Part shown: positions 12,901 to 43,791 of the stretch, piece after piece
Layout: the number at the start of each line of letters is the position of its first letter
Position numbering within the stretch: position 1 is the first letter of the stretch
Virus record (IMG/VR): IMGVR_UViG_3300036984_000055
Span: 1-47,615 of that record
Length of the DNA: 47,615 nt
Source: a virus
Lineage: Duplodnaviria; Caudoviricetes
Strand: one strand, 5' to 3'
The notes under the pieces: generated by a model
The model's input: the letters and a program-made list of their open reading frames with translations, nothing else
Told to the model about the DNA's origin: nothing
Databases searched by the model: none
Program-made: the position numbers and the translations under genes

Positions 12901-13230
12901 GACATCAAGATTAGCATTTGGGTTTGTGTTACCTATTGCAACGAAACTACCATTTATGAAAATAGGTGAGTTACCAAGAACTCCTGAACCAGTAGTGAAC
13001 TTGGCTACATAACCAGCAGAGCCTTCTGACTGTACAATAACTGGTACATCAGGTATGTTCTCCCAGAAAGGAGCAGTAAAGAAGTCTGACATTCTAGACC
13101 TAGTGATTACTTGATCTAGAATAGTGTCAATGAGAGAACGAAATAAAGTGTGTTCTCTTTCACCCCAAGGAGGGAGAATATCAACTGTGTTTAGAGTAAA
13201 GCCTCTATAAACTTCTGGTTCAATGGCCAT
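9976..13230 (-). CDS. Collagen-like fibre protein (tail/baseplate module)
   Basis: Two long G-x-T-G-[VLI]-Q tracts separated by a globular domain; C-terminal domain ...PTDGRKLIIRI...KTDYLGFVYNSTDNKWDVV. Confidence 0.9.
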   Translation of the reverse strand: MAIEPEVYRGFTLNTVDILPPWGEREHTLFRSLIDTILDQVITRSRMSDFFTAPFWENIPDVPVIVQSEGSAGYVAKFTTGSGVLGNSPIFINGSFVAIGNTNPNANLDVTGTVKFRDVSDGFVSLASGLVTSQSTIPWASIDGIPTGAGSMGDTGVQGATGIRGIDGEIGATGLLGPTGAYGGPQGDTGLQGPEGQTGVRGHTGAGIQGETGLIGPTGIIGLTGAIGLTGAIGQTGLIGQTGLRGQTGLQGIQGFIGPAGATGTLGLQGVTGLGTTGLIGATGLKGETGPLGGPQGATGLDGSSLGMYFKFKGIAYGGTWAKPDSKYVSFKLDSNNYIKGVWFSNSYFSLPTSTYAQDAGPIFQALDLVGSVIQLQTYSDGVGSRTLQLSTRIHNSNGDGYEWDVLGVTQQGYLPDDTVLRCWINGGAQGTTGLAGSNGQTGVQGAQGSTGVQGQTGFGLQGQTGLRGSTGIQGVGYTGAQGQTGLEGQTGIQGLGETGLQGVTGFVGSTGIQGLQGLTGLQGQAGSQGIQGTTGIQGVQGTQGNQGNQGTQGDQGATGLEGPIGQTGAGIQGTTGLGTQGATGVQGTQGIQGLDGNQGLTGIQGLRGETGLQGSTGVGEQGQTGLVGPTGAYGGPQGETGIRGVDGQTGVAGSTGPSGGPVGETGVQGSTGTQGIQGVTGSQGIQGITGLEGQTGVGGVQGATGVGVQGSTGALGFQGPQGEVGQTGVRGATGIQGSLGQTGVGVQGPQGVQGNQGVQGTTGTQGIQGVQGSTGVQGSQGNQGVTGVQGNTGLQGTQGTQGTTGSQGSTGVQGIQGNVGPTGYTGVQGTVGSQGLTGLGVQGIQGQTGVQGTVGSQGQTGVQGRTGVQGTQGATGVQGSQGAQGNQGATGLQGSQGATGIIGLTGQTGAGIQGVTGLIGRTGVDGQTGARGLTGLQGIQGIQGQTGSQGYTGLGITGPSGGPAGATGIQGVTGPSSSSTSGSTGTCSSLTINSSAYSQYNLTALTSSLTINAPVGSPTDGRKLIIRIYSASQQTITYDSVFRASTSLPFVTTTSGSSKTDYLGFVYNSTDNKWDVVSYIMGF

Positions 13231-22861: not shown

Positions 22862-23542
22862 TTAAGCAGCACCGGTTGCACCCTGTACTCCAGTTGTGCC
22901 CTGGATACCTGTACCAGTTACGCCCTGTACTCCAGTTGTACCAACAAGGCCAGTAACACCAGCAACACCAGTTGCTCCCTGTGCTCCTACTCCAGTCGCA
23001 CCAGCAACACCAGTCGAACCAACAAGACCAGTAACACCTGTAGGATAAACCATTGGCAGGTTGAGATCAATAAGAGTGATACCAGCACCAGTTACAGCTC
23101 TCTTAAACACTGCACCAGGGACCAGAATAGCATTGGTTGAATCTGCTCTGAACTTACCAGCATCAGCGCCAGTGTAGACACAATAAACTGTGCCACCAAC
23201 AGCGACTGTGCCATTTGTCTGTGCCCAAATCTGACCTTTTGTCATAACATTAGCAGATTCATACTGAGCATACTCAGAAGAATTAGCAGTATACGGATAA
23301 GCTTGCTCACCATGCTGTTGAGTTGTGACACCAAGGATTGAGTCACCCACGCTTGTAAGAAGTGTGCAACTCCTATTAGGAGAAGTGAATGCAGGAGTCA
23401 CTGCACCCAGTTTGACTCCAAGACCAAAACCAATACCAGCTGCAAGTTCTACAGTGTACGATTCGATTGTTGAAGTCCTGATGTCCGCAATCATACCTGC
23501 AAAAGCAGCGTTTGGAGAGAGTTGATAAGCTGTCTGACTCAT
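22862..23542 (-). CDS. Capsid decoration/cement protein with C-terminal collagen-like tail
   Basis: Between protease and MCP; AFAGMIAD, IGFGLGV, NVMTKGQIW; last ~60 aa are G-x-T-G repeats. Confidence 0.85.
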   Translation of the reverse strand: MSQTAYQLSPNAAFAGMIADIRTSTIESYTVELAAGIGFGLGVKLGAVTPAFTSPNRSCTLLTSVGDSILGVTTQQHGEQAYPYTANSSEYAQYESANVMTKGQIWAQTNGTVAVGGTVYCVYTGADAGKFRADSTNAILVPGAVFKRAVTGAGITLIDLNLPMVYPTGVTGLVGSTGVAGATGVGAQGATGVAGVTGLVGTTGVQGVTGTGIQGTTGVQGATGAA

Positions 23543-27018: not shown

Positions 27019-28332
27019 TTATGCCAATGCGCTAAAGACTGGTGCAAGTCCTAGTCTTTGTGTTGTTGCTGTTTCTGTAGTACCAGTATGAGACTGAGTT
27101 GCTAAATCAAGATTCAACATACCATTAGTATCAGCACCTGTAGCAATATCTTGTGTAGTATACCAGCCATCACCAGGGCCGTAAGTAGTCCAGTTAGTAT
27201 TCAATGTGCCATTTGGGAAGTTACCCCAAGATGGTGCTGAGATAGAAGTATCGTAAGAACCTCTAGTCCAGTTTGATTCAGATGTGTTATTGTAGTAACC
27301 ATTGTTCTTGACACCAATAACTGTGCCTATATAAGCATTACCAACTATTTTTGCATTTGAGTCAAAAATGCAGTTTCTCATTGCAGTAATTTGAGACAAC
27401 GTTGTTGTAGAGTTATCTGCTTGAATTGCTGCTGTAGTAAGACCCTTAAAAATACAATTGAAGAATCTAAAAAACACAGTACCAGCAGTTGTATCTCTAT
27501 CAAGACCTATTGCACCATTGTCAAACACACAGTTTCTAAATATTGCAGTGTAAGGTCCGCCACCACCAGGTGAGTCTTGAAATCTAAATCTACAATGTCT
27601 CATCTCAAATTGTAGTCTTGTGTTGTACTGTTGTGCACCGTAACCAGTACCTGTATTGTTTATGTTCCAGTAAGTGTAGACTCTTGTGCCAGCAGAATTA
27701 TAATAATGGTTGAATTGAATTAATGGTGTAGAAGTTTCTGCTGCTTGAACATAGACATAGTCACAAGCGAATTTGTTACCTATATTTGTTGAAGAAGCAC
27801 CAATAAGTTTTGCAGTACCTGTTATTGAATTTGTGTTGTCTAGTTGCAAGTAACTATATGTTGCTTGAACATTAGAATCAGCTGTGATGTATAGAATAGA
27901 AACAGAAGAATAAGTGCAGTTCTTCCAAGTAATGTTTTGAAACGTTTTTGTAGAGTTAGCTGTGATGAAATTCTTATTGTCTACCCATCTTATCTCCCAG
28001 TACTTGAAAGTAACTATACTTGTGATTGCTGTAGCATTGTTCCAGCTACCACCAGATACTGCAGGAGAACCAGAAGAGCCAGAAATAGTTTCACCTATAG
28101 TATTGTCATCTTTTACTGTAAAATAGACTTTGTGAGTTGAGTCTGAGTTTATAGTATCTACTGCACCAGCACTTGTCCAATAAACATCACCATTTCTTTT
28201 AATGATAATGTCACCAGAAGCACAATTAAAAGTAAGTTTGTACCCACCTGCACTATGGTTAGCGTCCATGTAATATGTGCCCGCTGTGTAGGTAGTATCT
28301 GCTGTCAAGTCTGAAATTGTTGTGTATGCCAT
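27019..28332 (-). CDS. Parallel beta-helix putative receptor-binding protein, paralogue 1
   Basis: FRNCVF/FFNCIF/RNCIF rungs; N-terminal ~120 aa clearly similar to 25605-27017. Confidence 0.75.
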   Translation of the reverse strand: MAYTTISDLTADTTYTAGTYYMDANHSAGGYKLTFNCASGDIIIKRNGDVYWTSAGAVDTINSDSTHKVYFTVKDDNTIGETISGSSGSPAVSGGSWNNATAITSIVTFKYWEIRWVDNKNFITANSTKTFQNITWKNCTYSSVSILYITADSNVQATYSYLQLDNTNSITGTAKLIGASSTNIGNKFACDYVYVQAAETSTPLIQFNHYYNSAGTRVYTYWNINNTGTGYGAQQYNTRLQFEMRHCRFRFQDSPGGGGPYTAIFRNCVFDNGAIGLDRDTTAGTVFFRFFNCIFKGLTTAAIQADNSTTTLSQITAMRNCIFDSNAKIVGNAYIGTVIGVKNNGYYNNTSESNWTRGSYDTSISAPSWGNFPNGTLNTNWTTYGPGDGWYTTQDIATGADTNGMLNLDLATQSHTGTTETATTQRLGLAPVFSALA

Positions 28333-28988
28333 TAGTACTTAAATCCTGTGCCTGCCATGCCTAGATAGTTGCCATTGAAATAGAACCCAATTACGTCTGT
28401 TGAACTTGTAGCACCAGATAGAGTTGGTGAAGTAGCAGCAGACCATTGGACACCAGTGATACCTTGTACAGAACCGTTTACTGTGTATGTTAGTACAAGA
28501 GTAGAATTAGCACCTGTGACACCGTTTGAGAAACCTAGAGTGCAACCAGTTGCTCCTAATGCAATAGATGCTACTTGTTTTAAACCATTTGACCAATTGA
28601 CTATAAACGCACCAGTTGCTCCTATAGAACCTGCATTATATTGTGCTGGTACAAAAACTCCTGTGTTACCTTGAACTCCTGTCCCTCCAATTAACCCTGT
28701 CAATCCCTGAAGTCCTGTTGCACCTTGTGCACCAGTCTCACCTTGTAGACCTGTCAATCCTTGTAATCCAGTTTCACCTTGTAGACCTGTAGATCCTACA
28801 AGACCAGTGTCTCCTTGAAGTCCAGTAACTCCTAGACCTTGAGCACCTGTTTGACCTTGTAATCCAGTGTTGCCTTGGATTTCCTGCAAGCATATGTCCC
28901 AAGATGTAGTTGATTCTCTATAGACATATCTAGTTCCAAGATGATTGGTATAGAATTCACCATCAACTGGACTAATAGGAAAAGGCAT
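28332..28988 (-). CDS. Short collagen-like fibre protein
   Basis: FP..P.DG..YTN.LGT.Y.Y N-module, G-x-T-G-L-Q tract, C-terminal domain ending PTLSG..SSTDVIGFYFNG. Confidence 0.85.
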   Translation of the reverse strand: MPFPISPVDGEFYTNHLGTRYVYRESTTSWDICLQEIQGNTGLQGQTGAQGLGVTGLQGDTGLVGSTGLQGETGLQGLTGLQGETGAQGATGLQGLTGLIGGTGVQGNTGVFVPAQYNAGSIGATGAFIVNWSNGLKQVASIALGATGCTLGFSNGVTGANSTLVLTYTVNGSVQGITGVQWSAATSPTLSGATSSTDVIGFYFNGNYLGMAGTGFKY

Positions 28989-29007
28989 GATTACTCCCTG
29001 TTAGCAA

Positions 29008-31830
29008 TTACCAGCAAAAAATTCTAATTTCACCCCTGCCACCATTACCACCTGCACCAGAAGTTGCTGAAGTAGAATAAGTTGCTGCACCACCTCCACC
29101 GCCTCCACCAGATGGTGCTCCACCGTTTCCACCTGCTGCTCCATTCAATGGTGCATTAGTTGAGTTAATTCCAGCACCTCCACCGCCTCCACCAGTACCT
29201 CCGCATAAAATCAAGTCAGATGCTGCACCATTACCTCCTGCACTAGGTGATCCTCCGCTTGCTCCAGCTTCTCCACCACCTCCAACAGGAGTAATTGTAG
29301 AAGAAAGTGTTTTTCCACCTTGACCTACAGCACTTGTGGTATTATTAGTTGATGTTGCTCCTCCACCCCCACCTCCACCAGCACCTGCATAAAAAGAAGC
29401 TCCACCAGCCATACCATTTTGATTGCCCCCACCTGCTCCACCACAAATTGAATCATAATGTACACCACTACCATCACCCAATGCACCATTTGGACTAGCA
29501 CCAGAGAAAAAAGAAACACCTCCAGTAGGTGAGAATGGACCATAGCCTCCTTGTCCAACAGTATTTCCAGATGCTACTGAACCTCCACCTCCAGCTCCTA
29601 TTTGAACAACTGCAGAAACTTTTCCTCCCATACCACCACCACCTCCAAAAGCAGCTACTTTTGGAGAAGTCAAACTACCAAACCAAGTTGCACTACCATC
29701 AACTCCTGTTGCTCCCTGTGTTGCAGTAGTTCCTGATACGCTTGAACCTCCTGCTCCTCCTGCTCCTATCATATAGTATTCTGTAGCACCTAACAGTTCT
29801 GCAGGTATTGTTTTGAAAATATGAGCTCCACCACCACCACCTGCTCCACCTTTTCTGTGTTGAGCCTGTGCATTTAGTCCACCTGAACCGCCTCCACCAC
29901 CACCAGCAAAACAATGTATTTCAACTATGTTACAAACTGGTTTTGTCCAAGTGCCTGTTTCACCACAAGTACCTGTAAAACAAAATGATGTGTAACCAGC
30001 AGCACCTGCTGTTCCTGCTCCTGTTACTCCTTGTATCCCAGTTACTCCTTGTGGTGCTCCAGCAGGACCTGTAACACCATCTAATCCTCTTACTCCTGTT
30101 TCACCTTGTGGTGCTCCAGCAGGACCAGTTGGTCCATAGGGACCAGTAATACCAAGTCCTGTATCTCCTTGAAAACCTGTAGCACCTTTTACTCCAGTTG
30201 AACCTTGAGGTCCTTGTTCACCTGCTCCAGTTGCACCAGCAATACCCGTCCATCCTCTCAAACCTTCTAAACCAGTTGCACCTTGGTCACCTAAATAATC
30301 AAATGAAATCCTACACCAAGAACCCTCAGGTGTCTGATTTCTATCAAATCCTGTTATATTATACTGAAAAGCTGAAGAACCTAAAGAAGTTATTCTGCAT
30401 CCAAAACCACCAATCCATTCTTGCCCTTGATAAAACCCATTGTCAAACACTCCAGTAAATACTATTCTTGAACCTTCTCTTAAAACGCTCCAAGTTCTAA
30501 CAGCCATGTCTACTTTTTTGCTGTTAACATCAGGTAAAGAATATAAAGTACCAGAAAATTCTATAGCTTGTAGAGTAGAATCAAGTCCAATAGGTAGTGA
30601 AGCAACTTTTACTAATGCATGACCAGTGTCTGCATGATTTCCATCTCCAAATGGGTCTGTTGTATAGTTTACTATTGCATAAATATCTGGTGTGAACAAT
30701 CCTGTAGAACCTTGTACTCCTGTTTGACCTTCAAGTCCAGTTGCTCCAACGAGTCCTGTTGTACCTTGAACTCCTAATCCTGTTTGACCTTGAATACCTG
30801 TAACTCCTGGTGCACCTTCAAGTCCTGTTGCTCCAGTAGCAGGTCCAGTAACGCCTTGTAATCCTAGACCTGTTTGCCCTTGTAAACCTGTTTCTCCCTG
30901 AACACCTTCTCCTTGTACACCTGTCTGTCCTACAAGACCTGTTACTCCTTGTAACCCTGTTTGTCCTTGTAATCCTGTTTGACCTACAAGACCCGTTATG
31001 CCTTGTTCTCCTACTCCAGTTTGACCTTGTAGACCTGTTTCTCCTTGAACACCTTCAAGTCCTGTAGCTCCAGTTGCAGGTCCTGTTACTCCTTGAATAC
31101 CAGTGTCACCTTGCACACCTGTTTGTCCTACAAGACCTGTTTCTCCTTGGACTCCTGTATGTCCTATAAGTCCAGTTAAGCCTTGAACTCCTGTTTGACC
31201 TACAAGACCCGTTATGCCTTGTTCTCCTACTCCTGTTTGTCCTATAAGTCCTGTTAAGCCTTGAACTCCTGTTTGACCTTGGATTCCAGTTGCTCCAACA
31301 ATACCAGTTTCACCTTGTGATCCTACTCCTGTTTGACCTTCTATACCTGTTTGACCTTCTAAACCAGTAATACCTTGCTGTCCTACTCCAGTTTGTCCCT
31401 GAATGCCAGTCTGTCCTTGTAGACCTGTTGTACCTACAAGTCCTGTAACACCTTGGTCTCCTACACCTGTTTGTCCTAAAAGTCCAGTTGAACCTTGAAC
31501 TCCAGTTGCTCCTACTAATGATCCTGCTGAAATTTGGATCCAATGAAGACCTGTAGAACCCATATAAAGTGCTTCATTAGTTTCATTCCAAAGGAGTTCT
31601 GGAGGTGCAGAAATTGAAGGAAAAGACGAACTTTGAATAAAATTAGCTAATCCTGTTGTACCTTGGACTCCTGTTTGACCTATAAGACCTGTAGTACCTT
31701 GGACTCCTGTGACACCAACAGTCTGACTAACTATTGTCCACTTGTCATTTGCTGCTGTGTATTTGTACACAGTCCCAAGTGGATTAGTGTATATCTGTTG
31801 ATCTGTTGCAGGATATGGGAAATGAGCCAT
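29008..31830 (-). CDS. Collagen-like fibre protein with C-terminal glycine-rich domain
   Basis: N-module, collagen tracts, internal globular domain, WTKP...AGGGGGGSG...GGNGGRGEIRIFCW. Confidence 0.88.
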   Translation of the reverse strand: MAHFPYPATDQQIYTNPLGTVYKYTAANDKWTIVSQTVGVTGVQGTTGLIGQTGVQGTTGLANFIQSSSFPSISAPPELLWNETNEALYMGSTGLHWIQISAGSLVGATGVQGSTGLLGQTGVGDQGVTGLVGTTGLQGQTGIQGQTGVGQQGITGLEGQTGIEGQTGVGSQGETGIVGATGIQGQTGVQGLTGLIGQTGVGEQGITGLVGQTGVQGLTGLIGHTGVQGETGLVGQTGVQGDTGIQGVTGPATGATGLEGVQGETGLQGQTGVGEQGITGLVGQTGLQGQTGLQGVTGLVGQTGVQGEGVQGETGLQGQTGLGLQGVTGPATGATGLEGAPGVTGIQGQTGLGVQGTTGLVGATGLEGQTGVQGSTGLFTPDIYAIVNYTTDPFGDGNHADTGHALVKVASLPIGLDSTLQAIEFSGTLYSLPDVNSKKVDMAVRTWSVLREGSRIVFTGVFDNGFYQGQEWIGGFGCRITSLGSSAFQYNITGFDRNQTPEGSWCRISFDYLGDQGATGLEGLRGWTGIAGATGAGEQGPQGSTGVKGATGFQGDTGLGITGPYGPTGPAGAPQGETGVRGLDGVTGPAGAPQGVTGIQGVTGAGTAGAAGYTSFCFTGTCGETGTWTKPVCNIVEIHCFAGGGGGGSGGLNAQAQHRKGGAGGGGGAHIFKTIPAELLGATEYYMIGAGGAGGSSVSGTTATQGATGVDGSATWFGSLTSPKVAAFGGGGGMGGKVSAVVQIGAGGGGSVASGNTVGQGGYGPFSPTGGVSFFSGASPNGALGDGSGVHYDSICGGAGGGNQNGMAGGASFYAGAGGGGGGGATSTNNTTSAVGQGGKTLSSTITPVGGGGEAGASGGSPSAGGNGAASDLILCGGTGGGGGGAGINSTNAPLNGAAGGNGGAPSGGGGGGGAATYSTSATSGAGGNGGRGEIRIFCW

Positions 31831-31839
31831 TGTTTGTCC

Positions 31840-33096
31840 TTAGGCTTGATACATTAGTTTAAACTCTACACCATCTAATGTCACTGTCACAAAACCAGAT
31901 GCTGATCCCGCTGCTCCTGTTGCACCTGCTGTCATAACTCCTGTTGTACCTTGAATACCAGTAGGTCCCTGCAACGAACCAGCACTTATTTGAACAAGTC
32001 CTATACCTGTCAAACCAGCATATAGAGACTCATCAACTCTATTCCAAAGCAATATTGGCTGATCAAACGAAGGGAATGACTCTGAATCTATAAAATTCTG
32101 TAAACCTGTTGTGCCCTGTAGTCCTGTTGTTCCAAGTCCTGTCACTCCTTGATTGCCATTAGGACCCTGTATACCTTGTACTCCTTGAACTCCAGTTGCT
32201 CCAGAGTCACCAGTATCTCCCTTAGTCCCTAAACCAGTCTGTCCTTGTAAACCATCTACACCAGTTTCACCTTGAGCTCCAACTCCTGTTTGTCCTTGTA
32301 GACCTACACCTGTAGCACCCTGAACTCCTACTCCTGTTGCTCCCTGGGAACCAACTCCTGTTTCACCTTGAATACCAACACCTGTTGCTCCTTGGATACC
32401 AGTAAATTCTCCAAAATCACTCCAACTTGTACCATCATAAGCTACAGCATGAAGAGACTTGTCTCCTGCTATTGCTGCAGGTATATTTTTATTAGAACGA
32501 CTATCTGTTGTAATTACTTGAACATAAGGCTCTTGAGGTGTATAACTACCGCCTTCTACTGTAGAAACTACTGTTTCATCAAATGCTCCCCAGAAATCAA
32601 CTTCAAATGCATGACCTTGTGCTCCTTGAACACCAGTAGTTCCCTGAATCCCTGCACCAGTTGCACCTTGTGTGCCTAATCCCGTCTGTCCTTGTAGACC
32701 TACTCCTGTTTCTCCTTGAGTGCCTACTCCTGTTTCACCTTGAATACCAGCACCTGTTTGACCTACAAGACCTGTAACGCCTTGTGATCCTACTCCAGTG
32801 TTGCCTTGGTCACCTTTAGGTCCTTGAATACCTTGTACGCCCTGAACTCCTGTTTCACCAACATCTCCTTGTACACCAGTTTCACCAAGAGCACCAGTCT
32901 GACCTACAAGTCCTGTAACACCTTGAGATCCATTTAGACCTGCTACACCTGTTTGGCCTTGAACACCAGTTAGCCCTTGTACAGTCTGACTTACAATATT
33001 CCACTTGTTAGTAGCAAGTGTATATCTGTATCTAGTCCCAAGATCGTTGGTGAATAGTTCACCATCTATTGCTGGATACGGAAAGCTATTAGCCAT
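31840..33096 (-). CDS. Collagen-like fibre protein
   Basis: N-module, two collagen tracts, LLWNRVDESLYAG module. Confidence 0.88.
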   Translation of the reverse strand: MANSFPYPAIDGELFTNDLGTRYRYTLATNKWNIVSQTVQGLTGVQGQTGVAGLNGSQGVTGLVGQTGALGETGVQGDVGETGVQGVQGIQGPKGDQGNTGVGSQGVTGLVGQTGAGIQGETGVGTQGETGVGLQGQTGLGTQGATGAGIQGTTGVQGAQGHAFEVDFWGAFDETVVSTVEGGSYTPQEPYVQVITTDSRSNKNIPAAIAGDKSLHAVAYDGTSWSDFGEFTGIQGATGVGIQGETGVGSQGATGVGVQGATGVGLQGQTGVGAQGETGVDGLQGQTGLGTKGDTGDSGATGVQGVQGIQGPNGNQGVTGLGTTGLQGTTGLQNFIDSESFPSFDQPILLWNRVDESLYAGLTGIGLVQISAGSLQGPTGIQGTTGVMTAGATGAAGSASGFVTVTLDGVEFKLMYQA

Positions 33097-33105
33097 AAAA
33101 GTCTC

Positions 33106-33996
33106 CTATATTTGGTAAAAGAATTGTCCAAATGCTTCTTTTGTGCCTGTTGCTGTCCAGACGTTACTTGTGCTCATTGTAGGATAAAAACTAACTATGT
33201 TTGAAGCATTATTCAATACAAGTAGTACTGCTGGTAGATCAACACCAGCATTTGTGCCCTTGAATATTGAATATGTCGCTAAACCAACATTGTTAGAAGG
33301 TAGTGACATAGTGAATGCTGAAGTACTTGATGAACCTGATATAGCAAATATCACATGTCTAATATTACCTACATCAGCATATTTTATTGTTGCTGATCCA
33401 CCTATTATGCCAGTAACGTCTGATGTAAATTCTTGCCATTGTTGTGGAGCAACACCAGTCGCACCTTGAACTCCTGTTGCTCCCTGTAGAGAACCAGAAG
33501 AAATTTGAACAAGTCCTATACCAGTTAAGCCTGCATATAGAGATTCATCTATTCTGTTCCAGAGTAGAATTGGTTCTGAGAAAACAGGGAAATCTTCTGA
33601 GTCTACAAAGTTTTGTAGACCTGTGTTGCCTTGTAGTCCAGTGGAACCAGTTTGGCCTACTCCAGTGACTCCAGTAGGTCCTAGAAGGCCTGTTGCACCT
33701 AGAATACCAGTTACACCTTGGACTCCTGTTTGGCCTTGCTCGCCTCCTGACGGACCTGTTACGCCTAATCCTGTAAATCCTTGTAGACCAGTAATCCCTT
33801 GAACTCCTGTAGGTCCTCCTGCTGTCCCTGTAAAACCTTGTGCTCCAGTATAACCACGAAGACCAGTAATCCCTTGTGCTCCTGGTGCGCCAATCGTAGC
33901 ATTAGCAACAACATCATCTGTTACGTTATAGACTCTTGAAATATCATCTATTTCGTAAATTCTTGATTCTGGTATATTAGACAGATTATCAGCCAT
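33106..33996 (-). CDS. Collagen-like fibre protein
   Basis: Collagen tract, [13 protein letters not shown] module, C-terminal beta domain (FTMSLPS...GQFFYQI). Confidence 0.85.
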
Positions 33997-35321: not shown

Positions 35322-36807
35322 GTTCTACTTCTTTTTCTATTTCTTGTTCTACACTTCTTTCACCTGAGATTTTTGTCTCTATAGAGTAACTATTACCACC
35401 AAACCTAGAATTTGCTACTTCTTCTGGTGTCAAAACACCTCTATCAAGATATACAGCATCTGTTTGTGCAACAGCAAGACGTCTATTTGCTTCTTCTTTC
35501 TCATCAAGACTCCAAAGAGTCGGGAATTCTATCTCCCAATCTTTTAACTCTTTACCATTAAAAGATGATTCTTTGCTCAACATGATGTATCTAACAAGCT
35601 TCTCAAACGGTTCTCTTAAAATCTGTTGCTGCATCCCATTGATTTTGTCGTAGTATCGTCTTAAGTCACTTGCACCAGTAGCATTTAGACCTGCAGGAGA
35701 TTGACCAAACAGAACAGTGACAGGGATACCAGAACCACATGAGATACCAAGTACTAGAGCATCAATGAGATCTTTGAGACCAGAGACTGATGCTGAGTTT
35801 CTTGTGTATGTCTCTTCTTTATCCATGAGCATAGTATTCATGATGTGTTTAGAGCGATCAAGAAGAGATAATCTTGCTAGTGCTGCAGCATCTTGTCCTG
35901 AGGAGATCATCTGTGCTAAATTCTCTATTTGTAGAGAACCAATGATGAACTCAGAGATGATAGTTTCAAGACCAGCATATGCTTCACCTAGTCCACGAAT
36001 TCTCTCAAAAGTAGATTGCAAGTAGCTGTCGTTCCAGTAGCGATTTCTTATTCTTTCTCGTAGTGGGATTAGAGGAGCATCAAAACGCATTACTCTTGAT
36101 TCGTGAACACGAAATGCACCAGTACCTGCGCTTGCTGCGCCTTTCATGCTTGTCGTGTATGGTTGATCACCTGAAGTTTTGCCACCAGAGATTAATCCCC
36201 ATGCTGTGGGTTTTTGTCGTTGTGGCCCATACATGAGCATGTTATTGCCAATAGTAGCAGGATTTATAGGGAATATAGTGTAGAACTCTGGTGTAGCATA
36301 TTTAGGATGCATTGGATCTTGATATAGATCAGCAGTAGTCCAGATAGTTCTCCAACGATCAAACACATGGATGTGTGTGATTTTCTTGATGTTTCTTTCA
36401 TTGACTGGTTCGTCGTAGTAACCATTGTCGTCAATACCCAAAATGCCTACAGAGCCGCCGTGTAGTAGAGCCCATTTGCCGCATTCTATTAGTTTTGAGT
36501 AGCCGTGTAGTTTCTTGACTTCTTTGTGGATTAAGTTGTCTGTGTCGGCTTTTACTTCAAAGTTGATCCTGAACATGTCTTCTGTGAGAACTTCAATGAT
36601 TCTCCTGCCCATACCTTCTGATCTAAAGATTGAATTCAGGTCTTGTTCTGTTAGTGCAGGGTTAGCATCAAATACTGTAGATAGTCTTTTGTCTACATTT
36701 GAGTACCCAAGACCAGTTAGAATGTTGTTCCACCCGTCTCTTCTTGCGATAGACATGGGTATTGGTTCTTGGTAGTCAAGTTTTCGGTATGGTTTACGTC
36801 TGATCAT
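35302..36807 (-). CDS. Portal protein (DUF1073-like)
   Basis: DGWNNILTGLG, RVHESRV.RF, GIPVTVLFGQSPAGLNATGASD...YYD, F..LW; start set at ATG 36807 (AAGGA RBS), 36756 also possible. Confidence 0.92.
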   Translation of the reverse strand: MIRRKPYRKLDYQEPIPMSIARRDGWNNILTGLGYSNVDKRLSTVFDANPALTEQDLNSIFRSEGMGRRIIEVLTEDMFRINFEVKADTDNLIHKEVKKLHGYSKLIECGKWALLHGGSVGILGIDDNGYYDEPVNERNIKKITHIHVFDRWRTIWTTADLYQDPMHPKYATPEFYTIFPINPATIGNNMLMYGPQRQKPTAWGLISGGKTSGDQPYTTSMKGAASAGTGAFRVHESRVMRFDAPLIPLRERIRNRYWNDSYLQSTFERIRGLGEAYAGLETIISEFIIGSLQIENLAQMISSGQDAAALARLSLLDRSKHIMNTMLMDKEETYTRNSASVSGLKDLIDALVLGISCGSGIPVTVLFGQSPAGLNATGASDLRRYYDKINGMQQQILREPFEKLVRYIMLSKESSFNGKELKDWEIEFPTLWSLDEKEEANRRLAVAQTDAVYLDRGVLTPEEVANSRFGGNSYSIETKISGERSVEQEIEKEVELETTAA

Positions 36808-37030
36808 TTGGCATCCTTGAACAACATTTCTGAGAAACAAGTTTTACAATTGTAGCAGCATGAAATAGAGAGATATAAAACCAATGGTAAATTAGACAAG
36901 ATATTTGATAGTCTTGGAAATGTGAGTTGAGACAGTTTTGTGTTAAGTTCAAAGAAGTAGAAGAGTTACAAGAAATCATTAAGTTGGCTAATGTGATGAT
37001 TTAGAGTTGGTACGTTTGACAACAAGTGTG

Positions 37031-37052
37031 AGCCCATGTAATCCTATGGGCT
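37031..37052 (-). terminator. Stem-loop downstream of terL
   Basis: AGCCCAT...ATGGGCT, 30 nt past the terL stop. Confidence 0.4.
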
Positions 37053-37081
37053 ACATATTGCTTTATGACTCGCCTAAAACG

Positions 37082-39262
37082 TCACCACTTAGTGAACTTA
37101 GAGTAATCAATGCCAGGCTTGTGGTACTTGGTAAAGATACCGTAGCGGATAGAATCACAATTTGCTACAAGAACATTATTAGCGAAGTATTCGTGATGCT
37201 CTTGAACAGTGATGTTGTAGACTTTAGATTTTCTTGCGGGGATGATGTTGATATTGGCCAGCACACTTTTTACTACAATATCTTGTTTTGTCGTATTTAT
37301 AAGCCACGAAGTCTGCTCCACATCGTTCGCATTTTCTGGTCTCATCATATTTACCAGAGATCCATCCGTATTTAGTCTTGCAGGCATTTGAGCAGTATAG
37401 TCTTGATGCAAATTTTTGTTGTTGTTGACCTGCAATATTTGTGTGTATGTATTCTTTACCACACGTAATACACTTGAGATTAAAGACACCACGTCTATGC
37501 CACTTTTCACCTCCGTCTCTAGCATGAACTTCTTTTGCTTTTGCTCTACCTTCTTCTGATTTGTGCCATTCTGCTGCAAGTTTATTGCACTCTTTCCAAT
37601 GTTCTTGTCTTCTTTTGTTTGTTTTATGGTCTTTTTTAATGTGATATGACCTGTGTTCATGTGAACTAATAAGTTCAAGATTATCGATATCATTGTTACC
37701 TGGGTTCTCGTCAATATGATGTATGTCAAACCCTTCAGGTATTGTACCTTTCTCATAAGTCCATTTGTCTCTATGGAGATATGAACATTTGCCCAAGAAC
37801 CCATGGCCTCTAAAATATGGGCTTTCTTTTCCTCCAATGTACCTGCCATACTTTTTGCCATTGTAGACAACAACTTCTTGCTCTTTTGACATATTGACTC
37901 CCTTGATAATTTAAGTATTATATCTAAGTGAGTCAACTCAAGAACACTTATTTTACCATTAGAAGTAATTATAGGGTGATTACCAGTAACTATAGTACCA
38001 CCCCAATTATAAGTTTCTGATATTCTAGACATTACGTTTGTGACTGGTCTATAACCCCATCTTGTGAGAACTAAGTCTCCTATCTTTATTTTTGATATTC
38101 TCTTGTTACCCTTGCTTGTCATTACTTTAGTATTTTTACCAAAGCAAAGGTGATCATCACCTACTAGTTTTTGTCCAAACAGTTTGTTGCCCTCTGCATC
38201 TTCTCCTGTTTCTTGATACTGTAGTCCTCTTAGTTCTTTTATCAAGTTAGTAGAGTCTTTAGTCACATTGATTTTGTATTCTTGTAGCTTACGAATACCT
38301 GCTATGACAGAGTCAGGGCCTTTTAATGCTGGTCTTGCGTTGTAACCTTCTCTCTTGAGTTCTTCTATAGATTTTGGCTCTGCAGAGTCGCAATAGATTT
38401 CATCATAGTTTTTAGAGACTCCTAGTTGCTCAAATCGTCTTGCTAGTTGTTGATTAGTTAGATTTGTTTGATAGAGTAACTCATGTGCATATAGGTTGTC
38501 ACCTTTGACTAAAAGTTTAGATAGGGCAGAGGGATCAGATGAGAATCCGAAGTCAAGACCATAGAAGCATTTTTCTGTTTCATGTTCTGGGAATTTGTCT
38601 ATGATGATGAAGTCAGGGAATACAAGTCCTTCTGTTGAGCCAATTTCACCTAGACCGTAGACTCTGAACCAGTTTTTGTCGCCTCGTCTAGATTCTATTT
38701 TGTCTACAATTGCTTGTTGTAGAACTGCTTTAGAGTCAAGATATGTAGATTTGATGAAGTTCTTTGATGTGATGAACTTCTGGATCCAGAACATCTGTGT
38801 AGGATTATAGTCTACAAACGTGCATATTCTTGTTCGTACATCTAGTTCATTAAAACTTGCTAACGTGATGTTGTTTACTTCATTGATGAACAAGTAGTCT
38901 CTACCAGCACCACGTAATTTGTCAGATCTATCTGCTGAGAAAAACTCAAATGTGACGAACGAGTTGTATTCGTAGATGAAGTCTGACTTGTTCCATTTGT
39001 TTTCGTCCCATTTGTCTGCTAGAATAGTTTTAAAGTCACGAATTACACCACGGCGCAAGTGGGGTGTTGATTCTGAGACTATTGAGATTAGAGATTTAGT
39101 GTTGACAAGTGAGGCTATTAGAAGAAGGAGTTGTAGGATAGAGAACGTTTTAGAGCTTCTTGTACCTCCTTGGTTAATGATTAAACGTTCACCAGAGAGA
39201 TATATCGCTAAGTTTCTTGAGAAGACGTTTGTGGTGAACAGGGTGGGAGTCCATTGTTTGAT
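37082..39262 (-). CDS. terL: Terminase large subunit, intein-containing; start unresolved
   Basis: Frame is open upstream of the listed TTG and contains Walker A QGGTRSSKT (39146-39172); Walker B YLFINE; nuclease GLDFGF, YCDSAEPK, DDHL/CDSIRY. Confidence 0.93.
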   Translation of the reverse strand: MKQWTPTLFTTNVFSRNLAIYLSGERLIINQGGTRSSKTFSILQLLLLIASLVNTKSLISIVSESTPHLRRGVIRDFKTILADKWDENKWNKSDFIYEYNSFVTFEFFSADRSDKLRGAGRDYLFINEVNNITLASFNELDVRTRICTFVDYNPTQMFWIQKFITSKNFIKSTYLDSKAVLQQAIVDKIESRRGDKNWFRVYGLGEIGSTEGLVFPDFIIIDKFPEHETEKCFYGLDFGFSSDPSALSKLLVKGDNLYAHELLYQTNLTNQQLARRFEQLGVSKNYDEIYCDSAEPKSIEELKREGYNARPALKGPDSVIAGIRKLQEYKINVTKDSTNLIKELRGLQYQETGEDAEGNKLFGQKLVGDDHLCFGKNTKVMTSKGNKRISKIKIGDLVLTRWGYRPVTNVMSRISETYNWGGTIVTGNHPIITSNGKISVLELTHLDIILKLSRESICQKSKKLLSTMAKSMAGTLEEKKAHILEAMGSWANVHISIETNGLMRKVQYLKGLTYIILTRTQVTMISIILNLLVHMNTGHITLKKTIKQTKEDKNIGKSAINLQQNGTNQKKVEQKQKKFMLETEVKSGIDVVSLISSVLRVVKNTYTQILQVNNNKNLHQDYTAQMPARLNTDGSLVNMMRPENANDVEQTSWLINTTKQDIVVKSVLANINIIPARKSKVYNITVQEHHEYFANNVLVANCDSIRYGIFTKYHKPGIDYSKFTKW
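37160..38146 (-). mobile_element. Intein (329 aa) in TerL nuclease domain
   Basis: Starts CFGKNTKV; IKIGDLVLT; block B TGNHP; ends VYNITVQEHHEYFANNVLVAN followed by Cys+1; removal restores DDHL-CDSIRY. Confidence 0.93.
37224..37892 (-). CDS. HNH homing endonuclease with C-terminal zinc fingers, nested out of frame within the intein
   Basis: LHR..W....G.IPEGFDIHHIDENPGNNDIDNLEL...EH...H; two CxxC...YCSxxC units; AAGGGAG RBS 5 nt before ATG. Confidence 0.9.
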   Translation of the reverse strand: MSKEQEVVVYNGKKYGRYIGGKESPYFRGHGFLGKCSYLHRDKWTYEKGTIPEGFDIHHIDENPGNNDIDNLELISSHEHRSYHIKKDHKTNKRRQEHWKECNKLAAEWHKSEEGRAKAKEVHARDGGEKWHRRGVFNLKCITCGKEYIHTNIAGQQQQKFASRLYCSNACKTKYGWISGKYDETRKCERCGADFVAYKYDKTRYCSKKCAGQYQHHPRKKI

Positions 39263-39723
39263 TTTAGTTTGTCGATCATTTCTTTTGTTTCTTGATTGAT
39301 GACAACTATAGTATCTGGTTTGTTTTCTGGGATACCTTCGTGTTTTACTTTGTCTACGAGTAGAGCTTTAGTTTTGCATAGAAGCTCAAGAGCTTTGATG
39401 CGCTCATACCCTTTGTTAGTTGTTTTTACAGATTCTATTTCAAGTTGTTGTATGATTTTGGCTGCTGACCATACAAGATCCTGATTCACGAGACTTAATA
39501 GATAAGTGATTCTATTAGAGATAATTGGGATTTTTAGCACTCGTTGAAAAACAAAGGATGGTTTTTTCCACCCTGCTTTTCTACAGGATTCTTCTCCGTT
39601 TAGAGTTTTAACATACTCTTGAACGAAAAATTCATACTTTTTTCTAAGTAGAGGGATTTTAGGGTCTGGTAATTGCTTCTTAGGAGGAGGAGGAAATACA
39701 GATTCCATCTTGCGATTTATCAT
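39208..39723 (-). CDS. terS: Terminase small subunit
   Basis: FVQEYVKTLNGEESCRKAGW HTH-like segment, RIKALELL.K; directly upstream of terL. Confidence 0.85.
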   Translation of the reverse strand: MINRKMESVFPPPPKKQLPDPKIPLLRKKYEFFVQEYVKTLNGEESCRKAGWKKPSFVFQRVLKIPIISNRITYLLSLVNQDLVWSAAKIIQQLEIESVKTTNKGYERIKALELLCKTKALLVDKVKHEGIPENKPDTIVVINQETKEMIDKLKSNNGLPPCSPQTSSQET

Positions 39724-39961: not shown

Positions 39962-40453
39962 TCACTTGCACCTTATGAACTTGCCGTGTAGGATTTGTGC
40001 ATAATTGTCGTAGAGTTTTTTGGCACCAGAGATTGTTTTGTGGATGCCAATGTAGATTTTCTTTTTGTTAGATGCAATTTGTGCTTTATAGTAAATCCTG
40101 CCAGATACGTTTATTTTGGTGACACCTCTTGGGAGATCTCTTGGTTTTTTGTTTCTTAAGTATTTTCTTGAGTTGATAGAGTTTTGAGATGGTGTTGCTA
40201 GTCTCAAGTTTTTTCTTGTGTTGTTTAGACCATTTCCGTCGATATGGTCTAAATGTTTTTTAGGGAAACCTAATACTTCTCTGTGCATGAGTATGTTTCT
40301 TTTCTCATGAGATCTTGATTTTCTGATGCAATAGAATAGGTTGTCTTTTCTTCTTGTGACGTACCAAGAGTAGTGTTTGAGACGCAAGAAGTCATTGTCG
40401 TCAAGAGAGACTGTCTTAGTTTCACCTTGGTAGAGTAGTTTTAGTTTTTTCAT
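39962..40453 (-). CDS. Free-standing HNH-AP2 endonuclease
   Basis: MHREVL...DHIDGNGLNNTRKNLR.AT..QN..N; AP2-like RGV...YKAQI......YIG........YD.......HGKF. Confidence 0.9.
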   Translation of the reverse strand: MKKLKLLYQGETKTVSLDDNDFLRLKHYSWYVTRRKDNLFYCIRKSRSHEKRNILMHREVLGFPKKHLDHIDGNGLNNTRKNLRLATPSQNSINSRKYLRNKKPRDLPRGVTKINVSGRIYYKAQIASNKKKIYIGIHKTISGAKKLYDNYAQILHGKFIRCK

Positions 40454-43400
40454 GCGTATTTTTGCAACAACTTTTTGTTGTTTAGACCTCTTTCGTCATT
40501 TGGTTTTAGTTTCAAGAATTCTTCATTTGCTAGATAACTTTCTTTAGTCATCCCTAAGAAGTTGTAAGCAACACAAAGTTGGAGCCAAGAGTCTGAGATG
40601 TATCTTAATTGAAACGGTGAATGTAAATCTTGATTTCTTATAGTGTTAGCACAAACTTTGTACCAGTGAATTGCGTTTCTATATTGTTTATTTGACATAT
40701 AATTCTCTGCTAGATAGTAGTAACCTTCGTGCCTCATATCTTCTAACATTAGTGACTTGAAGATGTATTCTTTGAATTCTTGTTCATTTTTGTTAGATAG
40801 TGAGATTAATGCTAGACTTTCTAGAGCAAGTATTTTGTCCTCATAGAACATATCAGGTGATTTGATACATTTCTTGAAGTAGGGAATTGACTCTTCTTTT
40901 TTACCTGAGTCAAATAGTTCTTTTGCATAGTAAAAGTTGTATCTTGAGTCGTTTGGTTCTTCTTTTACTGCTTGTTTGAGAATCTCTAGATTGCGTTCTA
41001 GTGTTGAACCTTTTTTGTTGTGGTGAGTGAAAATGTTTTCTGTTTTTCTGTTTGGGACAAGCGGGATGCATTCGTGGATGCGACCCTCCCATTTGAGATT
41101 GCAAGAGCGTTTGATGAAGCGTTCTCTGTCTAGAATTAGTTCTGGTGAGCCATCAGAGTAGTGTGCATAAACATACTTGCACACAATCATATCTCTGTCA
41201 AATACTAGATTTCTTATTTTTTCTTTGTCTTCTTCTAGAATGTAGTCGTCATCATCACACCAGAAGATGTAGTCTGATGTGCATTTAGAGAATGCATAGT
41301 TTCTTGCAGCAGAGAAGTCATTGATCCACTTGAAGTCATAGATGCGTGCATTGTATTTTTGTGCTATTTCTTTTGTGTTGTCTGTTGATCCAGTGTCTAC
41401 TATAATGATTTCATTGAACAAATCGTGAAACGTGCTTAAGCACTTGTCTAGACATGAGCCTGAGTTTTTTACTATCATTGCAAGTGATAGAGTAGTTTTA
41501 CGTTTGGTGAACCAGCAATCAGCGAATCCGCGTGCAAATATTAAAGCGGATTCTGCCCATGTTTTGTTTTGAACGTTTTGTAGACCTTTTTGTGACCAGT
41601 GAGCCCATGTGTCTTTGTTGGTGAGCAGCTCTATAGTTTTGTTGACAAATTCAATTCTGCATTCTCGAGTTAATGATTGACCTTTAGAGCCGTTGCCAAT
41701 CAAGATCCCTGTGTCATTAACTGTTGTTTGTATACCAGCAAAGTTAGATGCTATTACTGGTAGTCCCGCAGCTTGAGCTTCAAGTGCTGTGATGCAATAT
41801 GTTTCTTCAAAGTCTGTTGGGTATACCCAGAGAGAGCTCTTCATCATTTCAATGGCTAATTGTTGTTGGGAGATTCTACCATGATAGAACACTCCTGGTT
41901 TTGACATTTCTTTTTTGATTCGTTCTATTTCTTCTTTTTGGTCAGGTCGTAGTTTTTCCCAGAGATCAAGACCGTAGAAGATGTGAAGTTCTAGATCAGG
42001 GATTTGTTGTTTGATGAAGTCAAACAAGTAGAGTAGAGTGTCTAAGCCTCTATCAAGAGAAGAAGAGTAGATGAGTCTATGAGGGTGACGTTCTTGAGGA
42101 GTTGAGAAGCGATTTAAGTCGATACCGTTAGAAGTTAGAGCAAGTTTTTCTTTTGGTAGGTTGTGATATTGAGAGACAAAGTCAAGATGCCAGTTAGATA
42201 GGACACAAAATTTGTCTATTTTGTGTGAGTATTGTACTTGTTTGCCTGAGAGCAAAAATACATCATGAATTTGTACGAATTTCTTGCCTGCTCTAATTGG
42301 TAGAGCAAAAGGCGCTTCTGTCCGCTCTGAGATAAAATAGTCAATGTAATGTTGCTCGATGTAATTTGGGAATTCGCTGAAGTGTTGATAGTTGACCCCA
42401 TTGAATGAACCTGTTTTGTCTGTGTCACAAAAACTTGTCACCCTGTAGTTAAGTTTTGCAAATTCTTCTGCTAATCTAATTTGATGAGTCTCACTTCCAC
42501 CTATCCCGCCAGAGTTGATCGAGTTGTAGTTCCATCGCTCCCAAGCAGGCCCTGAGTATAGAACTATTGATTTTTTGCCCATAATGTGTTGCAAATGCCT
42601 GTTAGTTTTTTTGTCTGATTCTTGATATGCTTGTTTATCTTCTGATTCTAGTTGTTTTCTAGATACTGCCCCGTAATGGAACACAAATGAGTTGTAGTTT
42701 TGAGCAATCTTGTATCCTGCTTTTTTGATTCTTGAGCAGTAGTCTACATCTTCTCCACTGTTAGTGAATTCTTCGTTTAGTAGACCTACTTGTTTTATCA
42801 CGTCTCTTGTTGTTATAGTGCAGTAAAAAGCAATCCACTCGAGATGGTCTAGCACCTGTGTATGAGGTGAGACATATGAATATATGGCTGGGATCAAGGG
42901 TGTTATCTCGCTAAACTCGTGACATCCAGGGAGTAAACTAAGGGTGTTGATCCTGATGTCAATGTTGTGTAGCCAGGATTTGTCACAATTTGATAGTGGT
43001 CCTACTGCACCTATTGTGTTATCTTGTAATGTAGAGATTAAATGAGTTAACCAGTTGTGAGATACAATCGTGTCGTCATTTAGGATCATCACATATTTTG
43101 AGTTACCTTGTTTGATCCCAATGTTGACTGCTTGTGCAAAGTTTAGTCTTGATTTCTTTATGTATGTGATGTCTTTTTGTAGAGTAAGAAACTCATGTAG
43201 TTCTTGTGAGTCACCATTATTGATAATGATAATGTTGTAAAACTCTTTTGTGCAAGTTCTTATAGATTCTAAGCATTGTTTGAGACCTGTTAGATTTTTG
43301 TAAGTAGGGATTATGATGTCTACTTTGGGAGTGTTTAGAGCTTGCTCCCATTTAGATGTTATTTTGTCAAGAGAGAATTCTTGTGCAGCTATAAGAGCAT

Positions 43401-43791
43401 TTTGTTTTATTTGTTCTCTTTTTTGTGGGTCTTTTAGAGTCTCTATTGCTTGTCTCCAGTCGTCTTGTGTTGTTGCTACTAATGCACAATCAGGGTATTT
43501 TTTTATGATTTCAAGATATGATGGTAATGGAGAAACAATGCAGGGTATACCTAGAGACATTGATTGTGTTAGTCTGTTGGCACTTTTACATGGTCTTGTG
43601 ATGTAGTCTTGGGGGATTATGATGACATCTGCTTGTCTGAGATGAGTTAGCCAAGTTGATCTGTCCCAGATGATGTCAGAGCCTGGCCATTCTGAGATTG
43701 TAATTAGAGAACAATTTAGTTGTTCTATTAAAGGACGTAGTTCATCTGCTAAATATTTTGACCCACCGTAGCCGAACCAGTACAGTTTCAT
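40450..43791 (-). CDS. Multi-domain glycosyltransferase: GT-B C-half + GT2 + GT4 + GT2 + TPR
   Basis: KSANRL...GIPCIVSPLPSY; VDIIIPTYK...ILNDD...GEDVDY; GGSET...YSSSLDRGL...ETYCITALEAQAAG; SLAMIVKN...DTGSTD...DFSAARN...CDDDD...WEGRIHE; helical TPR-like end. Confidence 0.92.
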   Translation of the reverse strand: MKLYWFGYGGSKYLADELRPLIEQLNCSLITISEWPGSDIIWDRSTWLTHLRQADVIIIPQDYITRPCKSANRLTQSMSLGIPCIVSPLPSYLEIIKKYPDCALVATTQDDWRQAIETLKDPQKREQIKQNALIAAQEFSLDKITSKWEQALNTPKVDIIIPTYKNLTGLKQCLESIRTCTKEFYNIIIINNGDSQELHEFLTLQKDITYIKKSRLNFAQAVNIGIKQGNSKYVMILNDDTIVSHNWLTHLISTLQDNTIGAVGPLSNCDKSWLHNIDIRINTLSLLPGCHEFSEITPLIPAIYSYVSPHTQVLDHLEWIAFYCTITTRDVIKQVGLLNEEFTNSGEDVDYCSRIKKAGYKIAQNYNSFVFHYGAVSRKQLESEDKQAYQESDKKTNRHLQHIMGKKSIVLYSGPAWERWNYNSINSGGIGGSETHQIRLAEEFAKLNYRVTSFCDTDKTGSFNGVNYQHFSEFPNYIEQHYIDYFISERTEAPFALPIRAGKKFVQIHDVFLLSGKQVQYSHKIDKFCVLSNWHLDFVSQYHNLPKEKLALTSNGIDLNRFSTPQERHPHRLIYSSSLDRGLDTLLYLFDFIKQQIPDLELHIFYGLDLWEKLRPDQKEEIERIKKEMSKPGVFYHGRISQQQLAIEMMKSSLWVYPTDFEETYCITALEAQAAGLPVIASNFAGIQTTVNDTGILIGNGSKGQSLTRECRIEFVNKTIELLTNKDTWAHWSQKGLQNVQNKTWAESALIFARGFADCWFTKRKTTLSLAMIVKNSGSCLDKCLSTFHDLFNEIIIVDTGSTDNTKEIAQKYNARIYDFKWINDFSAARNYAFSKCTSDYIFWCDDDDYILEEDKEKIRNLVFDRDMIVCKYVYAHYSDGSPELILDRERFIKRSCNLKWEGRIHECIPLVPNRKTENIFTHHNKKGSTLERNLEILKQAVKEEPNDSRYNFYYAKELFDSGKKEESIPYFKKCIKSPDMFYEDKILALESLALISLSNKNEQEFKEYIFKSLMLEDMRHEGYYYLAENYMSNKQYRNAIHWYKVCANTIRNQDLHSPFQLRYISDSWLQLCVAYNFLGMTKESYLANEEFLKLKPNDERGLNNKKLLQKYA

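Follow-up and report, generated by a model that had tools for sequence, protein, structure and literature searches.

An HNH endonuclease gene nested out of frame in a phage terminase intein, and the layouts of its relatives at one terminase motif

Inteins with a homing nuclease in another reading frame are already in print, in preprints of 2025-2026 on the endonuclease VII and LAGLIDADG families; the HNH/TerL variant described here has another nuclease type. As far as the available parts of these sources go, Gosselin et al. (2025) reported actinophage inteins in which frame 3 encodes an endonuclease VII-like nuclease, an arrangement they called extremely rare, and Phillips, DeSimone and Gogarten (2026; bioRxiv 10.64898/2026.09.14.751524) described a cyanobacterial dnaX intein with a LAGLIDADG nuclease in the +2 frame under frame-dependent selection. 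In the ShiLan element, a phage methylase gene contains an HNH with two zinc fingers in a different frame (Arsenault et al., 2025; PMC11855218). Dassa et al. (2009; PMC2677866) described fractured genes, in which a free-standing nuclease lies between the halves of a split intein. The TerL inteins of mycobacteriophages were studied by Kelley et al. (PMC5050341); the five that were tested spliced, and cleavage of empty alleles was followed in small assays. How inteins acquire homing nucleases is an old question, for which free-standing, split, nested and fused stages have been proposed (Dassa et al., 2009; Gosselin et al., 2025). The one family analyzed here displays all of the proposed stages.

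The window, the whole stretch of 47,615 nucleotides, is a 47.6-kb virus record. It has direct terminal repeats and carries myovirus genes for sheath, baseplate, portal and capsid. The features of its terminase region are as follows.

39208..39723, minus strand: terminase small subunit gene, overlapping the terL start (Terminase_2 above cut-off)
37082..39241, minus strand: terminase large subunit gene (terL), PBSX/SPP1-like and interrupted by an intein (Terminase_3C, E 3e-14; phrog_2)
37160..38146, minus strand: intein of 329 aa (987 bp), DDHL/CFGK...VAN/CDSIRY (splicing residues and fold)
37907..38146, minus strand: N-terminal splicing part, residues 1-80 (pLDDT 92-98)
37250..37906, minus strand: in-frame filler of about 220 aa, an off-frame reading of the HNH gene (low pLDDT, no PHROG)
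37160..37249, minus strand: C-terminal splicing part, residues 300-329 (pLDDT 91-96)
37082..37159, minus strand: C-extein of 25 aa, beginning Cys-Asp (from the sequence)
37224..37892, minus strand: nested HNH endonuclease gene, 222 aa (PF13392 HNH_3, 52.1 bits, E 5e-14, above cut-off)
37898..37904, minus strand: Shine-Dalgarno-like AAGGGAG, 5 nt upstream of the HNH ATG (from the sequence)
37917..37922, minus strand: perfect TATAAT lacking a good -35 box, 24 nt upstream of the HNH ATG (from the sequence)

The terL frame was free of stops from 39271 to its stop at 37082, and no ATG, GTG or TTG was present in it before 39058. The gene likely starts at a non-standard CTG at 39241. A GGA located 8 nt upstream fits this start, and terL relatives start a few residues ahead of the TTxVF motif. 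An alternative start is an ATG at 39254, one base out of the terL frame, which opens an ORF of 21 codons. Since the contigs of three runs were identical, the start region (39241-39271) contains no assembly slip.

The intein is inserted one residue ahead of a conserved Asp, the last acidic residue of the terminase nuclease domain. The Asp motif of an intein-free relative aligned with DNHTIDATRY of PDB 2WBN, presumably the SPP1 nuclease domain, in which we take the aligned Asp to be a catalytic residue. Among the 119 closest terL relatives (46-54% identity), 118 had no insert at this H-x-x-D site and the remaining one carried a mini-intein there. Compared with these 119 relatives, and with an exact empty allele in the case of Acinetobacter phage Highwayman, the insertion is precise and in frame. 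The residue ahead of the Asp is mostly Met in the empty relatives of the window terL and Cys in the window. One mini-intein of about 150 aa (P0061), located at a neighbouring position in a terL 52% identical to that of the window, has a short leftover middle. A perfect 6-bp inverted repeat, AGGTGA-TCA-TCACCT on the plus strand (38148-38162), ends one base before the first codon of the intein and lies in the upstream half of the presumed target site.

The first-pass annotation had proposed a terminase intein with normal N- and C-terminal splicing blocks, and this was borne out: the splicing residues are complete and the fold matches solved inteins. The window intein has the residues of a class 1 intein, with Cys1, block B TGNH (T54 and H57), a terminal Asn and a +1 Cys. 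The penultimate residue is Ala rather than His. In an alignment of 48 inteins C1, G31, T54, H57 and N329 were invariant and V309 and Y310 nearly so. Pfam Hint/intein matches were found at both ends of the intein at E 8e-5 to 0.03, which is below the curated cut-offs. The AlphaFold model gave 17 Foldseek matches at E<=0.001 to inteins and Hint domains, the best being the gp41-1 intein (9.7e-7), which is consistent with a Hint fold in the model. Its splicing ends had pLDDT values of 91-98 and its middle blocks, partly helical, values of 40-68. The in-frame middle had no PHROG match. The arrangement of a split intein, with a stop after IntN and a separate IntC ORF, was not found in the window, where the intein frame has no stop. 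From these residues, and from terL being essential, the window intein may be expected to splice.

A complete HNH gene in the -1 frame, with its own AAGGGAG, ATG and stop, had also been claimed and was present as described, wholly within the intein (37892-37224) and with PF13392 above cut-off. Relative to the intein frame, the HNH ORF is shifted by one base in the upstream direction (-1, i.e. frame 3). Its frame has a stop seven codons upstream of the ATG, and its own TAA lies 21 codons before the end of the intein. The protein consists of an HNH core (residues 58-80), a helical linker and two Cys4 clusters, in which the motif CxxC...CxxxC occurs twice (C141/144/167/171 and C188/191/206/210); the two clusters may bind zinc. 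Residues H58, H59, N67, N71 and H80 together with C141, C144, C167 and C171 were invariant among 18 aligned sequences. HNH_3 was the only Pfam match of the nested ORF, its PHROG matches were HNH endonucleases, and it did not belong to the endonuclease VII family (IPR004211). The model of the HNH protein had a mean pLDDT of 87 and gave no Foldseek match at E<=0.001. With an HNH core and accessory DNA-binding modules, the protein has the build of an I-HmuI-like homing endonuclease; I-HmuI was the best fold match, at just E 0.15.

Compensating frameshift errors, a concern of the first-pass annotation, were ruled out by contigs from three DNA runs (depth 18, 105 and 30), which crossed the stretch with 0 differences and 0 gaps; this compares contigs rather than raw reads, and the runs may be the source samples. 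Because these contigs were identical, and because 62 of the best 80 IMG/VR relatives and five GenBank records have the same layout, the nested layout is not an assembly error. HNH genes are common in phage introns, and the insert might be taken for a group I intron with an HNH gene that is removed at the RNA level, or the layout for the product of compensating sequencing errors. However, no Rfam match was found at E<=1 in 36800-39400, the residues for protein splicing were complete in 66/66 loci, the contigs had 0 gaps, and the layout also occurs in cultured phages, which makes this explanation extremely improbable.

The two open frames had been called unlikely without selection, and the simulations agreed. 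When the HNH protein was kept fixed and codons were drawn from the window codon usage, 6.25 +/- 1.9 stops were expected in the intein frame, which was open in 4/20,000 draws. The converse simulation, with a fixed filler, left the HNH frame open in 0/5,000 draws. In 22 pairs of relatives (63-94% nucleotide identity, excluding the near-identical L070/L071), the HNH frame gave pN/pS values of 0.23-0.53 and the intein frame values of 0.74-1.22, i.e. purifying selection was found in the nuclease frame but not in the intein frame. This test was made on pairs of relatives; the window itself was compared with distant relatives only. Amino-acid identity was higher in the HNH frame in 2211/2211 pairs, with a mean of 0.355 against 0.204 in the intein frame (67 nested loci). 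In nested HNH genes, xTA codons were chosen in 0/807 cases ahead of a purine and in 240/812 ahead of a pyrimidine; the zero follows from the definition of nested, and the point is that the avoidance is context-specific, being confined to places where the following base would create a stop in the intein frame. The free and split relatives, which show no such avoidance, had xTA codons in 111/313 and 92/255 cases. In the 17 free or split IMG/VR relatives the intein frame was open in none (3-19 stops). The pN/pS contrast and the context-specific avoidance of xTA indicate, at the level of sequence, that HNH is the selected protein, under purifying selection, and that the filler is held only against stop codons. 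As had been claimed, the in-frame middle contains no conserved domain, given the lack of a PHROG match, the low pLDDT and a pN/pS near 1. The element is thus a natural overlap of 220 codons, in which one frame appears to be selected solely against stops.

A tblastn search of the window HNH against 50,697 phage records yielded 30 records, nine of which were examined for layout. Five GenBank records (Acinetobacter phage Highwayman, Tetrasphaera phage TJE1, Clostridium phage phiCDHM19, MT838676 and Rhodobacteraceae phage LS06-2018-MD07) were nested with the same offset at the same motif. The GenBank entries of Highwayman, TJE1, phiCDHM19 and LS06-2018-MD07 annotate the terminase only, and the nested HNH is therefore an annotation blind spot. 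In BP10 and PAE1 the HNH was free-standing beside the terminase genes, and in Vibrio phage 1.238 it was surrounded by a split intein. Phage phiCD119 (L004, 715-2595) carries the phiCDHM19 element with a 96.6% identical gene and broken frames; its terL frame is interrupted upstream, inside IntN and at the HNH start, by decay or by old sequencing errors. It was excluded from the tree and from every count.

A scan of 4/64 parts of IMG/VR gave 239 confirmed relatives, of which the best 80 were classified; this choice may favour forms similar to the query. Among these best 80, 61 were nested in the -1 frame and one in the other frame, 12 lay between split-intein halves, five were free-standing, four of these directly behind terL, and one HNH was found behind a complete terL, within an open frame in which the terL 3' end recurs. 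The nested layout is thus not rare but the majority state among the best 80 of 239 relatives. The precedent suggested in the first-pass annotation was confirmed by Gosselin et al. (2025), and the suspected rarity was not, since 62 of the best 80 relatives share the layout. The only nested copy with the other offset (L081, 814-3105) suggests a separate origin or a double frame change. Behind one complete terL (L023, 2358-3443), the open frame that overlaps the HNH has the DAxRY tail at its end for a second time. In another locus with a free HNH behind a complete terL (L017, 1078-3088), both terL and HNH end in NRRGN. Split TerL inteins around the HNH were present in L028 (counted as split rather than free), L029, L030, L033, L038, L041, L043-L046, L057 and L089, with an IntN of about 90-100 aa and an IntC of about 35 aa; several of the IntC ORFs seem to begin at or within the HNH stop region. 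A search aimed at longer proteins yielded an in-frame fusion of IntN and HNH (P0028). A fully in-frame HNH intein was present at the same motif with a weaker score (P0034). Scans of IMG/VR with the window HNH and the N-extein as single proteins gave no close relative; a scan of genome contigs with P0004 gave none either, and thus no prophage copy.

All of the 66 resolved inteins had Cys1, block B [TS]xxH, a terminal Asn and a +1 Cys, Ser or Thr (L034 and L084, with unresolved ends, were left out of the junction counts, and the C-end of L015 was misplaced by the pattern). Their insertion points were one residue before the Asp in 28, two before in 23, just after it in 11 and elsewhere in four. 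Three or more neighbouring positions around one Asp are therefore used. Their exteins formed 27 clusters at 35% identity. The HNH core pattern was intact in 59/66 nested loci. In the HNH tree (FastTree, no root) 39/87 inner branches were open; the split forms clustered in few groups, the free ones were scattered among the nested ones, and 12 changes occurred among four states. The order of states cannot be read from this weak, unrooted tree. One HNH family at one terminase motif thus occurs in free, split, nested and fused states.

A candidate HNH start codon was present in 66/66 resolved loci, and a Shine-Dalgarno motif in 44/66, counted without a control set. In the window, motifs like AAGGGAG also precede other genes. 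The TATAAT at 37917..37922 is a weak candidate for an internal promoter, and promoter-like sites (a -10 box with a -35 box or a TG extension) were not in excess in the window region (8 against 9.1 in shuffles). Near the HNH start such sites were found in 21/61 nested loci against 7.1 expected under synonymous resampling (maximum 14 in 300 draws; loci with short exteins left out), and in 24/68 loci against 33/628 extein windows. No such site was found in 40/61 nested loci, whereas the copy of phiCDHM19 has a perfect TTGACA-17-TATAAT. An internal sigma-70-type promoter is probably present in part of the nested family. Contigs of an RNA run covered a 221-nt piece of the HNH gene; strand and level are not readable from them.

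The HNH could instead be made by -1 ribosomal frameshifting, as a fusion to the N-extein and the N part of the intein. The in-frame fusion of IntN and HNH in the same HNH family (P0028) and the offset of -1 in 61/62 nested loci among the best 80 of 239 IMG/VR relatives fit this mode of expression. However, the genetic code also favours the -1 bias: control genes had 0.071 stops per codon in this frame against 0.079 in the other, and a majority of the stops in the -1 frame may be removable by synonymous change. Moreover, the window HNH frame opens just six codons before an ATG with a Shine-Dalgarno motif, no slippery heptamer was seen by eye at this opening, and the candidate start codon is found in all 66 resolved loci. 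Frameshifting is therefore considered very improbable, and internal initiation is the preferred reading.

Among 113 phage records matching the Highwayman terL gene, the full insert was present only in Highwayman itself. Phage Acba_21 was empty and 99.5% identical to Highwayman over the exteins. In the last 153 nt of the extein, eight of the 11 differences between the two phages were located at -1 to +12 of the site, and the differences flanking the site turn the +1 Leu into Cys. These clustered changes resemble a co-conversion tract. For phiCDHM19, an empty relative was 94% identical. The pair L061/L075 shared 36% identity in the extein, 86% in the N part of the intein and 68% in the HNH. Over 57 loci (without L071, L015 and loci with short exteins) the Spearman correlation of HNH identity was 0.25 with the splicing domain and 0.26 with the extein; HNH identity follows the splicing domain no more closely than it follows the extein, and thus gives no sign of long-term co-travel of HNH and intein. 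The relatives thus show signs of homing, in their patchy presence and in the changes clustered at the site. A free-standing HNH behind an empty terL suggests that the nuclease already targeted the site before it met the intein, and collaborative homing may be offered as a comparison (PMC10448857).

Free-standing HNH relatives nearly always flank terminase genes, and the ambiguity between cofactor and homing roles is discussed in the available part of Barth et al. (PMC10448857). The HNH might accordingly be a domesticated packaging cofactor like HK97 gp74, serving cos cleavage rather than homing. This role is very improbable, as near-identical phages are entirely without the HNH, the site is empty in all but one of the closest terL relatives, and the build is I-HmuI-like with long DNA-binding arms, although the fold match is weak.

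Intein-free terL alleles had been recommended as a test: one was found for Highwayman in Acba_21, and for the window terL no close empty allele was found, the best other match being 54% identical. Homing of the window copy is thus predicted from what its relatives show. The window HNH sits on a long branch, with <=44% identity to any relative. Together with the missing close empty allele, this would suit an immobile relic, in which dual coding is real in the family and the window copy no longer homes. We regard such a relic as very unlikely, as the catalytic and Cys residues and the start signals are intact and third positions are the most divergent ones between the window HNH and its relatives.

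A homing element is very probably the better description: one mobile unit that, judging from its sequence, would do two jobs over two frames, the terminase frame splicing and the nested HNH cutting insert-free terL. Ribosomes reading terL would produce a precursor with about 220 aa of dispensable filler enclosed by the folded Hint halves, and excision of the intein with the filler would restore the nuclease active site of the terminase. Other ribosomes would initiate at the internal AAGGGAG/ATG and produce a free HNH; in part of the family, the message for it would probably start at an internal promoter of the sigma-70 type. During co-infection the HNH would nick or cut near the 3' end of insert-free terL, and repair would copy the 987-bp element with a few flanking bases, which would supply the +1 Cys for splicing. 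Separate translation, cutting and splicing are predicted steps. If true, separate expression would allow the nuclease to act early and the terminase to be made late, and the out-of-frame state might be kept for this reason. The invasion of a mini-intein by a free-standing HNH is plausible as the order of events, although the HNH tree, with its poor resolution and lack of a root, does not show it. Chances are about even that nesting is no rare passing stage but a stable state that dominates a large mobile family, whose target is the last catalytic Asp of terminases unrelated to each other; extrapolation would put this family at about a thousand copies or more in IMG/VR. With the cultured pair Highwayman/Acba_21, splicing, internal initiation and homing are all open to direct experiment.

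Other genes of the window were noted. A second, free-standing nuclease gene (HNH_3-AP2) is located upstream of the small subunit gene (39962-40453, minus strand), and a 1113-aa protein with several glycosyltransferase domains (40450-43791, minus strand) adjoins the packaging genes. A methyltransferase gene is located at 1181-1780 on the plus strand. At least six genes with collagen-like repeats were present on the minus strand (9976-13230, 22862-23542 and 28332-33996); several of them lie between the portal/head-morphogenesis genes and the head protease, and one such repeat is fused to a head structural protein.

In the literature searched, mostly open-access articles and the main texts of preprints, no paper on the HNH/TerL family was found; the available part of PMC12350094 makes no mention of the family. 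None of the phages named in the available part of Gosselin et al. (2025) was among the 30 tblastn records.

As in the inteins of Gosselin et al. (2025) and Phillips et al. (2026), the splicing blocks enclose a same-strand nuclease ORF that uses another frame, and the host frame is open. From what is available of Gosselin et al. (2025), the likeness extends to the same offset, a contiguous phage intein, an unstructured in-frame middle, a proposed invasion by a free-standing nuclease and many non-canonical cases in terL. Their nuclease is an endonuclease VII, whereas that of the window is an HNH_3 protein with two Cys4 clusters; their cases come from actinophages, whereas the family of the window spans phages of Acinetobacter, Clostridium, Tetrasphaera and Rhodobacteraceae and uncultured phages; and the arrangement they call extremely rare is here the majority among the best 80 of 239 relatives. 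The dnaX intein, according to the available text (10.64898/2026.09.14.751524), is similar in its overlapping same-strand nuclease ORF, its Shine-Dalgarno motif and its frame-dependent selection, and also in the coexistence of empty, mini and full alleles; it differs in residing in a cellular gene, in its LAGLIDADG family and in its single insertion site.

ShiLan, in the accessible account (PMC11855218), shares the hidden HNH with two zinc fingers, its own start and a stop-free host frame, but is without a splicing domain, whereas the host frame of the window is a full intein. The fractured-gene layout (PMC2677866) was found with the HNH family of the window and at the same terL motif in 12 of the best 80 IMG/VR relatives and in Vibrio phage 1.238. 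The nucleases in the part of Dassa et al. consulted are GIY-YIG and Vsr-like, and the intein frame of the window, unlike theirs, is unbroken. The mycobacteriophage TerL inteins, as given in the available part of PMC5050341, also lie in the terminase active centre, but their nuclease is in frame, unlike that of the window. What is notable in the present family is its size and the set of states at one site.
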